NCBI GenBank assembly: GCA_051294905.1
Contig: CM119372.1
Coordinates: 29,142,001 to 29,206,000 of the forward strand
Length of the DNA stretch: 64,000 nucleotides
Direction: 5' to 3'
Source: Botryllus schlosseri
Lineage: Eukaryota
The translations under genes and the position numbers were made by a program. Each line of letters begins with the position of its first letter. The first letter of the stretch is position 1. Under the pieces are notes generated by a model that was given only the letters and a program-made list of their open reading frames with translations, did no database searches and had not been told where the DNA came from. This document shows positions 3,049 to 38,265 of the stretch, piece after piece.

Positions 3049-3071
3049 GGAACTAGTGAAGTATATGCCCG
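3049..3071. repeat. Left terminal inverted repeat, preceded by 8-bp TSD AAAAAATT
   Basis: Begins with GG and matches the reverse complement of 38243-38265 at 18/23. Confidence 0.8.
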
Positions 3072-3319
3072 CTTTACTCGTGTGTATGATTGACGTCATC
3101 CATCATGATTCCCCATGATCATTTAATTCAATTTCCTTATTCTATCATTTTAATCTCTTTTTTCTTCTCGTTCTCTCGTTTTTCTCGCACGAGTCAAAAA
3201 ATGCTGACTCAGCATTTTTTCTAGTTACGAGGTTTCAGTCTTTCCGTTTGCTTCCATTATATGGATTTTTCCGCTTTTCCCTCATTATGTCACATATTTA
3301 CACTCTGCCAAAAACAGCT

Positions 3320-6300
3320 CTAAATCTTTTGTATGACTGTGGGTGGTATAGGGCCTTCGCACAACACCACCTCTTGTACGTTTGATTGCAGCAGTACGAG
3401 TCCCTCATTCCTTAGATCTGCTGCTTTCATGCAAATTACCACATTTCGTTTTTTGCTTTTCTTCGTTATCGTTTTGCTCAAATGAATGAATCTTCTGTTC
3501 ATTCGTTCAATGCCTGCGGACATTATCTGTCTTGCATTGTTTTCGGTCGTCATGTGGTACAACACCTCGTTACCTTCATATTTACAGTACGGAGGGGGCA
3601 ACCCTTTTGTATGTCCATGGGCGGCCGCCAGACCATATTCCGAGGTTATTGCTCTGTCGCACCTTTGCATGACGCTCTGTATTTCGTCCATTTCCATTTG
3701 TTCCCCAGTTTTCTTTTGGAGGGCACCGTTAATATCTTCCCAGGGATGGAACCCGTCCACCGAGTTGTCACAAAGTTCATGTCGACAATGATACATCAGT
3801 GTCTGCTGTATTTTTTCCGGTCGGGGTCTTTCCTGTCGGTACGAAACGCTCTTTTTCTTGGGAATTGTCGCCCAAACATGTGGATCATCTTCTCCCGCAG
3901 CCATTTCCATCCAATAAGATCGAGACAATCCATCTGACGTAAATACCTGCATCGTACTTAAATGAATTACCTCTTTTATTTGGAATCCTGCGAGATGATT
4001 GAGCCACCTTTGAATTAGGGGTTTTGGGCTGGGATTTTTTGCTTTGTCCGTCATTCTTTTGAGTAGCCCAAATACCCCAGTATTATCAGTGATTATTGTA
4101 AAGGATAGGGCTCTCAACATTGACTGCCATTTTTCCACCGAATCCTTTAAGGCTTTCAATTCCTTTGTACATGGATCATAAGCTTTTGCCGTTGGAGTCG
4201 CCCATTTCTGACTGTAGTAAGCAATTGGGTAGACTTTTTCGAAAGGCGGCTTGCACCCCTTTTCCGTATAAAAAATGATTGATCCAAACCCAATATCTGA
4301 AGCGTCCGTTTCCACAAAAATGGGAAGATTTGGATCCAGATGGTACAGAACCTTAGCATCATCGAGGGCTGCTTGTGCCGTTTTGAAATCCTGCAGTAAT
4401 TCGTTGGTCCATAGCACAGGCGTCACTCGTCCTTGTGTCGCAGGAACCTTACCTGTCAGCGCATCGAATTTGGCCAGCTTCAAACTTAACTCAGGAATAT
4501 GTTCCGAGATATAGCGAAGGGCACCAATCCACCCCCGCAGCTCGTACACATTATGGGGTGGTGAGAGTTCTCGTAAAGCCCTTATTCTTTCGGGCTGAAC
4601 CTCAATCTCTTTCCCCGTCAAGGTTGCCCCCAAAAGGTTCACCCTTCGTTTCCCAATGAAACACTTATTTATGCTAACCGTTAGCTTCATCTTGGCAAGT
4701 TGTTCAAATACCATACGTAGCAGTAGCAAATGGTCCTCTACCGTTTTTGTGCTGAGAAAAATGTCGTCTATGTACGCCTCCATAGGCGTCGCATTCTCCT
4801 CATCCGGCCGGCCATTTTGCTTCATGTATTTACGATAATTTTCCGTTATTGGTTTCACCACGCATTCCTGCATATTCGCGCTCCAAAGAGCCACAGCAGT
4901 TTTAAGCCCCATCGGCATTTCACGCCATCTTACATGCATCCCTTTGATGGCTATACCCACATATTGTTTAGATCTTTCCGTTACATCCATGTGGAAATAG
5001 GCCTTCTTCAAATCAAGGAGAGAAAGCACTTCTCTGCCTTGGGCGAGCTGCTTTACGTCTGGTACAAGAGGTGGAGGTACTTCTATTGATTTTATGGCCG
5101 CATTAAGGGGTTGGAGATTCTGTACTACTCTCCAGGCTTGCTTCCATCCGTCCTCCTGTTTTTGTCTCTCATTCATTTTCTGAGGGACCACAAAGATAGC
5201 CAACTTCCATTCAGCAAAACCTCGTTCAATGACGCCCAAGTCCAGGAAGTTATCTACCGCTTCTTTCAATGCCTTTGCCTGGCCCTCCCCCTTCAGATTA
5301 TAAGGCCCAGACACAAATGGTTTCGTCGAGGGATCTTTAAGCTCGATGTCGCATTTGTATTTCATGGTTTGTAGAGCGCCAAGGTGGTCCCGTAGGTCCT
5401 CGAGTTCGGACGCGAACGGTGCGTAGATGGCTTTCCAGACATCATCAGCGATAATGGTATTTTCCGGAGTCGTCAGATCAGGAGGTTTGTATGGGAGTTT
5501 GGCCAGCGCTACCGATTGTGCACAGAGATTTTCGAGCTCCGTCTTGACACGTGGGTGAGTGTCTTTCTGTAAAACATACGTAGTGACTGGCCCAGTCATA
5601 GGCTGGTTTGAGATTCGTGATGACCGGGTTGTCGGTGTTGGTGGAGAGAGGGTGAGGTCCTTCGATGTAGGCCTCTGATCTCGGCGCGTGCCCGCACCTA
5701 CCGCCACGCCGACGGACTCCTTTTCCGCCGGGGACCCTTTTTCTGGGGAGACGTGCATCCTAAAATCCCCAGACTCCTTGTCGGACATATCCGGACGTGT
5801 ATCCGGCTGACCGGCAATTGCTGCTTCATTTGAACCTTTTGGGAAAGTACTCATTACTATGGTTGTCGTCATGCAACTATGGGCCGAATCATTAAGGTTA
5901 TTCGGACAAGTGCATCCACGAAAGCATTTAGGACCAGTTTTCTCGTGCAGGTCTTTATTCTCGCCAGCGGACATTCCACTCTGGATATCAGCTGTAGTAG
6001 TCGCCATGCATCTATGGGCCGGATTTTTATCGTCATCCGGACAAGTGCATCCGCGAGAGTGTTCGGGACCAGTTTTCTCGTGCAGGTCCATCTTTACGCC
6101 AGCGGGGATTCCACGCTCGACGTCTTCATTAACGGTGTCAGCAGGCATTCCTGTCTCGACACCTATAGTTTCCCTTGGGTTATGTGTGACGTTAGTTGCT
6201 AATATCAACTCGTCGCTCGTACCAGTGGTTATTTCCATCTCGGTACTCGCGCCAGCGGCAATTTTCCGCTCCACAATACTTTGTTTTGCAGCATCCATCA

Positions 6301-37034: not shown

Positions 37035-38006
37035 TTATGGTAATACAGGAGACCCATCAAATTTGTCAAAATTATACGGTGGGTCATTGTGTATGGTGCG
37101 TAGAAGTGCCATAAATCGGTCAGTTTTCTGATGTTGACGTTTCCACAAAAACTCCCCCACGTAATCGGCCAAAAGATGACGTGCTAGACCACGAGACCTA
37201 TGTAAATGATACTTGAGCTGGGACCAGCAACATTCCACGTCATTGGTATGGTGAGATGTCCTAGGGTCTTTAAACCAACAAGAATGGTCCACTACGCCGT
37301 GTATATAACCTTTTCCCCAACTCTCTATGCCCTTATAGGAAGGGTAGGCATCTGTCAGGATCGTGGATCCCTCTGCTACATTCTCCACTATGAGTTTTCG
37401 AAATACTTCAGCCGTTCTGTCGGCAGTAATCTCAATGAACATTTCTCCGGTAGCTTTATCTATGCCACCAAACCCCCAAATGGCTTTAACAGCTGGTCCT
37501 TTGCCCGAGGCAGCCCGGCGCTTAGCTAAGTGCGTTTCATCAATGATAACACAGCCTTTTTCACCTCCCAAACGTCGTTTATTCCTGCGAAATTCGGCCG
37601 TACAAATTTTTCGCAGTCGTCCACTCCAAGTGACCGTGGAACGTTGGCTAATCTCGGCTTCATGTGCTATTTGGGTTTGCAACGCGTCATGAGCCCAAAA
37701 ATAGAATAGCATCAATAATTTAGGAAGTGACACATTGCTGTTGGCAAATATTGAATACTTGCGTATGGTTGCCGTAGTATCACAAGGATTGCATCGCCAT
37801 CTGAACCCATCATCCACTATCGTTCTCCTTTCTTCTTTCATAATATGCGCACATCGTCGACACTTCATTTTCCTTACCAACAATCCGTGATCTCTCAGAA
37901 ATAGTACACAATCTCGCGTGTTGATTAGCGCACCCGATTTGATCAAACTTAAGACATTGTATGTTCTTCCCCTCGTATCTGTGCAAGCAAACAGCACCGT
38001 ATACAT
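37035..38006 (-). CDS. Merlin/IS1595 (ISXO2-like) DDE transposase, apparently intact
   Basis: Zn-finger CRRC..WRCNPC, HTH-like QTQIAHEAEISQRSTVTW, DDE motifs IIDETH, LTDAYPSY, HTNDVECCW, and EFLWKR. Confidence 0.93.
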   Translation of the reverse strand: MYTVLFACTDTRGRTYNVLSLIKSGALINTRDCVLFLRDHGLLVRKMKCRRCAHIMKEERRTIVDDGFRWRCNPCDTTATIRKYSIFANSNVSLPKLLMLFYFWAHDALQTQIAHEAEISQRSTVTWSGRLRKICTAEFRRNKRRLGGEKGCVIIDETHLAKRRAASGKGPAVKAIWGFGGIDKATGEMFIEITADRTAEVFRKLIVENVAEGSTILTDAYPSYKGIESWGKGYIHGVVDHSCWFKDPRTSHHTNDVECCWSQLKYHLHRSRGLARHLLADYVGEFLWKRQHQKTDRFMALLRTIHNDPPYNFDKFDGSPVLP

Positions 38007-38242
38007 GGTATGTCAAATCTCTACCGTCTCTCGTGGGACGAATGTCGTTTTTCTTGACATTACATCATTATTGCTTCTCTCCTATTTAATCCCGTACCGT
38101 TCATATGGCAGGGTCATTTCTTTCACTTGTTCCGTGCTAGACCTACTGCTTTTTTTACCCCTATTTCAATGTACATTGAAAACACTTACAATCCTTCCAC
38201 ACACCCACTTTCTGATGCAACTGTTATTGCCGTAGCAACCTC

Positions 38243-38265
38243 CGGGTACTTACTTCACCAGTACC
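38243..38265. repeat. Right terminal inverted repeat, followed by 8-bp TSD AAAAAATT
   Basis: Ends with CC and is the inverted match to 3049-3071. Confidence 0.8.

Follow-up and report, generated by a model that had tools for sequence, protein, structure and literature searches.

A multicopy Merlin-type element of Botryllus schlosseri that encloses a conserved gag-pol and envelope-like gene set without integrase or long terminal repeats

In the accessible text of a census of virus-like retroelements, those that integrate use a retroviral-type integrase or, in DIRS, a tyrosine recombinase; that text covers integrase-bearing groups, the integrase-less Caulimoviridae, Hepadnaviridae and nackednaviruses, DIRS, and HEART, whose mechanism is given as unresolved, with nothing in it like the element described here (PMC12440569). 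Merlin/IS1595 DNA transposons are defined by terminal inverted repeats (TIRs) that start with GG, a target-site duplication (TSD) of 8 or 9 bp and an IS1595-type transposase; the families described in the accessible part of the source carry the transposase gene, in one case with an extra open reading frame (ORF) thought to be spurious, and gag, pol and env are unmentioned in that part (PMC8101967). Transposons and viruses can nevertheless become one: Teratorn is presented as the first case in which a cut-and-paste transposon has fused with a DNA virus, with no counterpart among reverse-transcribing viruses listed in the accessible text (PMC10175614). Here we describe a locus of Botryllus schlosseri at which Merlin/IS1595-type ends and transposases enclose a Ty3/gypsy-type gag-pol and envelope-like genes. 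It lies at positions 3049-38265 of a 64,000-nucleotide (nt) stretch of DNA (assembly GCA_051294905.1, contig CM119372.1, forward strand 29,142,001-29,206,000), hereafter the window, to which all unqualified positions refer. We hold it as very likely that this block is a single unit mobilised in the Merlin manner and carrying a functional retroviral module, and we consider it probable, with appreciable room for doubt, that the composite element also passes through an RNA-templated step.

The original prediction, made from the letters of the window, had described a block of genes bounded by 23-bp GG...CC TIRs and an identical 8-bp flank, and had proposed that it is one mobile unit integrated in Merlin style. 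We searched the 495.5-Mb assembly (219 contigs) with the outermost 600 bp of the element, which gave 40 scored matches among 105 candidates for the left end (84-93% identity) and 40 among 52 candidates for the right end (75-85%). In 20 of 20 left loci and 20 of 20 right loci, similarity breaks off precisely at GGAAC... and ...GTACC, respectively, and the sequences beyond are unrelated. Since the break points are identical in all loci, positions 3049 and 38265 are the true termini, and the interval between them is exactly one copy, about 35 kb long, of a multicopy element. The pol-side (3′) TIR occupies 3049-3071 (plus strand) and begins GGAAC, the transposase-side (5′) TIR occupies 38243-38265 (plus strand) and ends GTACC, and the first matches the reverse complement of the second at 18 of 23 positions. 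Every terminus that we read starts with GG, either as GGAAC or as GGTAC. The octamer AAAAAATT stands directly outside both ends, as left (3041-3048) and right (38266-38273) TSD. When ends were paired by contig, strand and distance, both flanks could be read for 22 pairs, and 19 of these have perfect TSDs of at least 8 bp (18 of 8 bp and one possibly of 9 bp) that differ in host sequence from copy to copy; two more match at 7 of 8 positions, and one, on contig C11, shows no match. The octamers are A/T-rich, often with an A-rich and a T-rich side. Paired ends are mostly 34-52 kb apart, with single cases at 81 kb, at 14.7 kb, in an 8-kb derivative and in a 24.8-kb sister lineage. In all, dozens of copies, spread over at least 16 contigs, have common ends and gene order and different TSDs, and both the predicted ends and the predicted unity of the block were borne out. 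The copy with ends 81 kb apart (contig C2, 29897933-29979341) has a perfect TSD, AAGATTTT, and no Pol among the matches listed; presumably it is swollen by nested insertions or rearranged.

A site without the element is also available for comparison. The host DNA to the right of the window copy has paralogues of 98-99% identity about 60 kb away on the same contig, and the 120 bases that we read from one of them run unbroken from the homologue of the left flank (63 of 68 positions) into that of the right flank (58 of 60), with a single AAAAAATT between. This unoccupied site, paralogous rather than allelic, shows that the element inserted precisely and with duplication of 8 bp. An empty site with a single octamer had been foreseen; it exists, though as a paralogue and not as an empty allele. 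The host sequence around the insertion is locally duplicated at C2 29240696-29241292, 29243937-29244533 and 29234084-29234363 (98-99% and 84% identity, 54-64 kb downstream), and one of these duplicates served as the unoccupied-site control. The genomic copies show that it is the whole unit of 25-47 kb that moves with a Merlin/IS1595 footprint.

Two genes encode transposases of the predicted Merlin type. TPaseA (323 aa; 37035-38006, minus strand), the terminal one, matches DDE_Tnp_IS1595 with an E-value of 9.3e-10 and contains the motifs CxxC...CxxC, IDET, TD and E..W, and TPaseB (18870-19805, minus strand) matches the same family at 2.3e-15; the PF12762 scores are 39.2 and 57.4 bits, respectively, at a cut-off of 27. 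The two proteins are about 40% identical and have in common D, D and E-containing motifs, which we take to be the catalytic triad. TPaseB is found in the lineage of the window copy (W) and in two sister lineages, F3 and F4, and had no match in the copy of a third, F2, that was examined, so that only TPaseA is present in every lineage examined. Like a Merlin/IS1595 transposon, the element thus combines a DDE_Tnp_IS1595 protein, GG TIRs and 8-bp TSDs; unlike one, it holds 19 genes in 35 kb, a transposase-only content being a usual rather than a strict property of the group. Merlin elements are usually only a few kilobases long.

All 19 substantial ORFs between the TIRs lie on the minus strand and are uninterrupted, and many of the gaps between them measure 8-135 nt. 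Their order along transcription is TPaseA, Env, Env2, eight small ORFs with a gene for an LRR protein, TPaseB, IAP, E2, Gag and Pol, in agreement with the gene content that had been predicted (gag, protease-RT-RNase H, an Env-like protein, accessory genes and transposases, intronless and on one strand; RT, reverse transcriptase). Pfam searches were made with these ORFs and with 36 further stop-to-stop ORFs of at least 60 aa. Across this set we found no match to the integrase family rve, to any recombinase, DNA polymerase, capsid, packaging ATPase or helicase family, to the hallmarks of Polinton/Maverick elements (protein-primed DNA polymerase B, double jelly-roll capsid and rve integrase) or, in the 19 substantial ORFs, to herpesvirus families. 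Neither integrase nor long terminal repeats (LTRs) were present in any copy examined, as the original prediction had it.

Pol (3320-6775, minus strand, with a frame open upstream to 6928) is composed of a protease, a variable linker, RT, RNase H and a C-terminal Tpt1/KptA-like domain, and it matches RVT_1 (2.6e-17), RT_RNaseH_2 (5.3e-18) and PTS_2-RNA (1.9e-10). The protease match is weak (RVP, E = 0.023, below the cut-off), with the DTGS motif present. The order of protease, RT and RNase H, together with a zinc knuckle in Gag, is that of Metaviridae (Ty3/gypsy). The Tpt1/KptA-like domain (3323-3928, minus strand) sits at the C terminus of Pol, where retroviruses have their integrase; it scores 41.5 bits against PTS_2-RNA (cut-off 26) and finds a solved Tpt1 in the PDB, 7kw8, at an E-value of 1.2e-6, with Ala aligned to the Arg that precedes the GHS motif of the solved enzymes. 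Downstream of pol (3049-3320, minus strand), an all-purine run of 16 nt about 108 nt from the 3′ terminus is a candidate polypurine tract, and ATTAAA-type motifs 166 and 193 nt past the pol stop codon are candidate poly(A) signals.

Gag (6868-9714, minus strand) is a Gag-like protein of 948 aa with an N-terminal coiled coil, an all-helical conserved middle domain and a CCHC zinc knuckle (zf-CCHC, 23.1 bits as a fragment scan, cut-off 20.8). Residues 360-560 are its most conserved part, with Retrotrans_gag and Ty3_capsid as the nearest language-model clusters (0.90-0.93), which we use as a lead only; the middle domain has no Pfam match, a Gag profile found nothing significant among the PDB sequences (best E = 0.42), and an AlphaFold2 model built from four sequences was unusable (mean pLDDT 34.0). 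The pol frame is −1 relative to gag and open from 61 nt ahead of the gag stop codon. At this overlap (6842-6889, minus strand), folding and conservation point to a −1 ribosomal frameshift signal, in which the heptamer A_AAA_AAC (6889-6883), in the correct register, is followed by a stem-loop over the gag stop codon (−21.1 kcal/mol, z = −3.77, equalled by 1 of 200 shuffles); heptamer and stem are retained in all five copies compared, which belong to three lineages. In three copies of the F2 and F4 lineages the Pol ATG has become ACA, so that Pol would there have to be made as a Gag-Pol fusion product.

The gene following TPaseA (34401-36899, minus strand) encodes a putative class-I-type fusion glycoprotein of 832 aa, Env, as suggested by sequence features and language-model neighbours. 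It has the layout of signal peptide, R-x-R/K-R site, hydrophobic peptide, long helices, membrane anchor and Cys-rich tail, and the basic site and the hydrophobic stretch are kept in seven of seven homologues. The nearest named language-model clusters, CoV_S2, Fusion_gly and Hemagglutinin (0.89-0.91), come with low recognition and give a weak hint. A profile search of the PDB sequences returned nothing significant (best FliJ at E = 0.078; coronavirus spike HR1 at E = 0.78-2), and an AlphaFold2 model from a seven-sequence alignment was unreliable and showed helices only (mean pLDDT 38.1). A second glycoprotein of 1134 aa, Env2 (30908-34312, minus strand), was recognised from its sequence and from cross-matches with Env: its N-terminal part is paralogous to the surface part of Env (24-31% identity), after which come a stalk rich in Ser and Thr and a membrane anchor at the C terminus.

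The genome holds 124 protein matches to TPaseA, 59 to Env and 51 to Gag, and Env adjoins the transposase wherever both are listed. Most frames are intact, having no internal stop codon in 25 of 28 Pol matches at 89% identity or more, in 22 of 24 full-length Gag matches at 81% or more, in 25 of 27 Env matches at 76% or more and in 28 of 31 TPaseA matches at 84% or more. Pol, Gag, Env and TPaseA were compared in 14 pairs, of which the eight with unsaturated synonymous divergence (dS) gave ratios of nonsynonymous to synonymous divergence (dN/dS) of 0.10-0.24; in the other six, all between lineages, dS was saturated. The four proteins are under purifying selection, and the retroviral replication and envelope module of the element has been selected and has not decayed. 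The compared copies of family W differ from each other by dS of 0.18-0.46, and their TSDs are perfect, which indicates that the divergence arose during replication of the lineage and not through decay in place.

Together, the four core genes occur in at least four diverged lineages, in elements of 25-47 kb. Relative to the proteins of the window, lineage W is 84-91% identical in TPaseA and 76-82% in Env; F3 is about 80% identical in Pol, 73-74% in Gag, 76% in TPaseA and 60% in Env; F2, 82% in Pol, about 61-63% in Gag, 74-76% in TPaseA and 57-58% in Env; and F4, 77-81% in Pol, 63-64% in Gag, 63-65% in TPaseA and 57-59% in Env. More distant transposase-Env pairs also exist (TPaseA 39-60%, Env 32-64%). 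By their identity ranks in the search tables, the core genes appear to divide the elements into the same groups, in much the same order. The F2 element (contig C7, 15813396-15838174; 24.8 kb; TSD AAAAGTTC) has the layout of the window copy and contains Pol, Gag, Env, Env2 and TPaseA, and no match to IAP, E2, LRR or TPaseB was found in it, which marks TPaseA as the constant transposase and the accessory block as variable cargo. In a derivative of 8 kb (contig C16, 623892-631928; TSD GAAATATC), Gag and Pol are full-length and open, the leader that precedes gag and the two TIRs are still there, and TPaseA is reduced to its first 59 codons.

Lineage F4 departs from this gene order. At its loci (C1 24285510-24307812, C3 608001-625757 and C12 25761408-25771471) the sequence is LRR - ORF - TPaseB - ... 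- Gag - Pol - TPaseA - Env - Env2, followed by a terminus ...CACTAGTTCC, the same motif that follows Pol in the window family. About 90 bp separate pol from the TPaseA gene, so that F4 displays the retroviral order with the transposase in the position of the integrase, and the whole arrangement equals a circular permutation of the window order. A search of the 44 kb upstream of the F4 3′ terminus, a region rich in other repeats, did not reveal the 5′ end, and the reading as a circular permutation rests on gene order and the 3′ terminus.

Between the Env genes and gag, the window copy carries its accessory genes, all on the minus strand. An IAP-like protein (15786-17537) has three BIR domains and a RING finger (BIR 6.7e-60, zf-C3HC4_3 2.9e-9), a ubiquitin-conjugating E2 is encoded at 13585-14040 (UQ_con 5.6e-47) and an LRR protein at 20426-21475 (LRR_8 8e-76). 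The remaining accessory ORFs lie at 12990-13448, 14100-14552 and 14786-15181, the first and third of which are paralogous (E = 2e-9), and, from the ORF list, at 17833-18483, 19814-20320, 21561-22130, 23620-23958, 24066-24482, 24665-25183 and 25968-26501. Three paralogous pairs are found within 12990-26501 (12990/14786, 17833/21561 and 19814/24066), which shows that genes have been duplicated inside the accessory block. GC content is 0.47-0.48 in gag-pol versus 0.35-0.40 in the accessory block, a contrast that suggests modules of different origin.

Two stretches have no long ORF. One is the leader of 3.3 kb upstream of gag (9715-12989, minus strand), part of which (9715-12030) is retained in the 8-kb derivative. 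It contains a nested insertion of about 1.37 kb (10289-11658) with 28-nt inverted ends that are 96% complementary; the C16 copy lacks this repeat, as do contigs of two runs, in which 10113/10280 is joined to 11666/11669. Depth of single-cell RNA is very high over 11339-12005, with many loose ends, as expected of a repeat that is expressed elsewhere. The other stretch (26502-30907, minus strand; 4.4 kb) is conserved among copies, apart from a nested repeat of about 785 bp (28630-29414), which recurs at 95-96% identity elsewhere in the genome and does not belong to the remaining copies. Tandem duplications, each of about 130 nt, lie at 5857-6120, in the variable linker of Pol, and at 30336-30597, in non-coding sequence downstream of Env2.

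Relatives outside this genome are few. An exhaustive HMMER search of 1.84 billion representative proteins gave 31,668 relatives of the RT, only a handful of them close. The three longest close relatives of Pol (46, 42 and 36% identity) and a fragment of 43%, all from ENA/Logan assemblies, have RT-RNase H-Tpt1 without integrase; the relatives with this fusion are P0053, P0054/P0203, P0055 and P0059, and rve had no match in P0053-P0055, P0058, P0059, P0061 or P0203. In P0203, an ENA protein, RT-RNase H-Tpt1 runs on into an Exo_endo_phos (AP-endonuclease-type) domain, which could be either another integration module or a gene-model fusion with a neighbouring LINE. The nearest named relatives of Pol are Ty3/gypsy polyproteins, at 22-27% identity. 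A word-indexed search added one relative of Env and four of TPaseA, all from Logan assemblies, and a scan of IMG/VR with Pol found none. When JGI metagenomes were scanned with the distant relative P0061, one contig of 13.9 kb was recovered, with a Pol of 34% identity, a gag-like ORF, PR-RT-RNase H (PR, protease) and an ORF of 1338 aa, and with no LTR, integrase or transposase within the contig; it neither supports nor contradicts a wider distribution. At least part of the locus of the 8-kb derivative is contained in contigs of eight studies, and one of the runs is labelled as a second organism. This run, X9, contains 35% of the sampled 31-mers of that locus, a share from which near-identical copies may exist under another species label.

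How, then, does the element compare with known systems? Teratorn, a teleost fusion of a piggyBac-like transposon with an alloherpesvirus, is likewise a virus-like gene set enclosed by transposase TIRs and TSDs, multicopy and recurrent, but according to the accessible text it is of piggyBac type with TTAA targets, a DNA virus with its own polymerase and about 180 kb long, whereas our element is of Merlin type, carries an RT-bearing gag-pol-env set and measures 25-47 kb (PMC10175614). DIRS-like elements (DIRS, Ngaro, PAT, VIPER and TATE), which are akin to LTR elements, also have another recombinase in place of the integrase and no normal LTRs, as far as the accessible text goes (PMC12440569). 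They differ by a tyrosine recombinase, split or inverted repeats and an internal complementary region, neither such an enzyme nor such repeats being found in our element by Pfam and repeat search, and the element instead has a Merlin DDE transposase, short TIRs and 8-bp TSDs, together with protease, Env and accessory genes. With Ty3/gypsy elements, including the env-carrying errantiviruses, it has in common PR-RT-RNase H, a CCHC Gag, the −1 frameshift and a separate env. It is set apart from them by the lack of integrase and LTRs, by ends of GG...CC and TSDs of 8 bp where LTR elements have TG...CA and 4-6 bp, by the Tpt1/KptA domain at the end of Pol, by a length three to five times greater and, in the window lineage, by env and transposase upstream of gag. 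Ginger/TDD elements similarly link retroelement integration enzymes with cut-and-paste transposons, but they are the converse case, DNA transposons with a gypsy-type integrase and no RT, whereas here an RT is joined to a transposase that is not an integrase (PMC2836005, accessible text). Caulimoviridae and Hepadnaviridae, finally, are reverse-transcribing and without integrase (PMC12440569, accessible text), and a circular or redundant template would solve the problem of missing LTRs in the same way. Unlike our element they are small and episomal, with no transposase, TIRs or regular TSD-flanked germline copies, and no movement-protein or terminal-protein domain was seen in the element. The word Merlin does not occur in the accessible text of a review of giant transposons (PMC6431247), nor do “transposase” and “inverted repeat” in that of a survey of env-carrying Ty3/gypsy elements (PMC13524379). 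In the literature searched, to which subscription-only papers, Repbase reports and supplements did not belong, we found no account of a DDE transposase other than integrase, whether Merlin/IS1595 or another, that serves a retroelement or a reverse-transcribing virus together with TIRs, in keeping with the original prediction, which knew of no described family of this kind. We rate the element as outside every described kind, with the reservation that its mode of replication is inferred.

The explanation that we favour is that a Ty3/gypsy-type core and an envelope glycoprotein have become permanently joined to a Merlin/IS1595 DDE transposase, such that the transposase would replace the retroviral integrase and the 23-bp TIRs would replace the LTRs. 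A genome-length RNA would be transcribed from the single coding strand and packaged by Gag and, through frameshifting, Gag-Pol; RT, the sole polymerase encoded, would copy it into double-stranded DNA; and the transposase would bind the TIRs, on this DNA or on a copy that is circular or has been excised, and carry out the insertion with an 8-bp stagger. Env, perhaps together with Env2, could enable passage between cells, and IAP, E2, LRR and the small gene families might modulate the host. As for the ends, it is tempting to speculate that the TIRs are rebuilt without LTRs from a template that, like that of pararetroviruses, is circular or terminally redundant, which would fit the permuted gene orders: that the window and F4 orders are circular permutations of each other and both end in CACTAGTTCC is a hint at such an intermediate. 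A fuller version of this explanation, which we put forward only tentatively and think rather doubtful as a whole, sees in the family an undescribed major lineage of enveloped RT elements with the largest genomes copied by RT (25-47 kb), in which Merlin transposase and TIRs have replaced integrase and LTRs and a circular or terminally redundant intermediate with abutted TIRs is the substrate of the transposase. If so, the Tpt1 domain fused to Pol would process or cap nucleic-acid ends during the cycle. The lineage may still be active and common to two species labels.

Several observations weigh against copying through RNA. The main obstacle is that the sequence, as far as it can be interpreted, does not explain how TIRs would be regenerated from RNA: the element contains neither a direct repeat above 129 nt nor a terminal one above 10 nt, and its ends recur nowhere inside it, so that no known strand-transfer scheme would rebuild both TIRs, and a search for tRNA primer sites, confined to Lys, Ala, Arg and Ser tRNAs, found at best 15 of 18 matching positions, with about 0.4 such sites expected by chance. 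Length is a further difficulty, as the accessible texts give about 10 kb as typical of retroelements and 30-40 kb as extremes, which the element exceeds at 35-47 kb (PMC6431247, PMC10175614). A single-cell RNA run, of which about 3% was read at 90% likeness, had a depth of 0-0.6 over gag and pol, and a bulk RNA run under a second species label gave 53 partial reads on gag-pol at the same likeness. The assignments of Gag as a capsid protein, a lead, and of Env as a fusion protein, a weak one, come from motifs and language-model neighbours, the fold of neither being established. Lastly, 10 of the 20 left-end loci belong to a short subfamily that has lost RT-RNase H through a deletion within the gene, which joins Pol residues ~1-422 to ~980-1151 and leaves the protease and Tpt1 parts; copies of the subfamily with paired ends span 11-14 kb, and 6 of the 10 loci have a distinct left-TIR variant in common. 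The fact that this RT-less subfamily has multiplied makes mobility in trans possible, and such mobility could be purely DNA-based. The main rival explanation is a giant cut-and-paste Merlin DNA transposon with a DNA-only intermediate, in which gag-pol-env is cargo kept for another benefit, for instance because it packages the element and delivers it from cell to cell or horizontally, or because it interferes with other retroelements. Such a transposon would leave exactly the TIR/TSD footprint and unoccupied site seen here. In its favour, no LTR, primer site or terminal redundancy was found and RNA reads on gag-pol were nearly absent; derivatives lacking RT-RNase H, transposase or env have multiplied; and Teratorn shows that a complete virus can travel inside a transposon (PMC10175614, accessible text). 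What tells against it is that RT, RNase H, protease, Gag and the frameshift signal are strongly selected across lineages saturated in dS, which is hard to explain unless reverse transcription aids the element's own spread. One examined derivative, moreover, retains precisely gag-pol and the leader with both frames fully open. The layout itself, with 19 of 19 genes co-oriented and uninterrupted, tight gaps and no other polymerase family by Pfam, is compatible with an RNA genome, and a single-strand, intron-free, packed arrangement is typical of RNA-templated genomes. We regard a DNA-only element as a real possibility, yet the less probable one, and we infer reverse transcription of the whole unit, the step on which the label “reverse-transcribing virus” would depend.

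Two further explanations fare worse. The accessory genes resemble, in their IAP, E2, LRR and small multigene families, the sets of large DNA viruses. IAP and E2 genes occur in baculoviruses, entomopoxviruses, iridoviruses and asfarviruses. An endogenised DNA virus that merely contains an RT gene could also account for the different GC contents of gag-pol and accessory block, but the 55 ORFs searched include no DNA polymerase, major capsid protein, packaging ATPase or helicase, Pol has no relative in IMG/VR and all genes lie on one strand, so that we consider this origin very unlikely. The remaining explanation is a fortuitous juxtaposition, in which a dead retroelement and host genes happen to lie between Merlin ends, TIRs and TSD match by chance or the assembly is a chimera. 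The imperfect TIRs, the A/T-rich TSD and the presence of two nested foreign repeats and of ORF-free stretches in the window copy could be cited in its favour; against it stand the common ends and gene order of dozens of copies, which have different TSDs and are distributed over at least 16 contigs, the paralogous empty site, contigs from the runs of other studies and the selected genes. The copy, TSD and empty-site data rule such a juxtaposition out, leaving it a negligible probability. Each of the tests by which the original prediction had expected that it might fail thus came out in its favour, and the last two possibilities are dismissed, a chance match in A-rich DNA by the many copies with the same ends in unrelated flanks and a chimera by the contigs of several other studies that cover the element.

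If the explanation that we favour is true, the union of a gag-pol-env core with an unrelated DDE transposase is a route into the genome that is new for retrovirus-like elements, blurs the division between Class I and Class II elements, offers a parallel in nature to the descent from a DNA transposase that is presumed for retroviral integrase, and puts the assumed size limit of reverse-transcribed genomes to the test. For annotation it is a warning, as pipelines built on LTRs and integrase will miss such elements. It also raises the questions of how 35 kb are copied and provided with ends without LTRs, whether a transposase that is not an integrase can act on cDNA, and what use a genomic parasite makes of the captured host genes IAP, E2 and LRR. 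All three questions are directly testable in this family, since it has many copies, is diverse and keeps most of its frames open.

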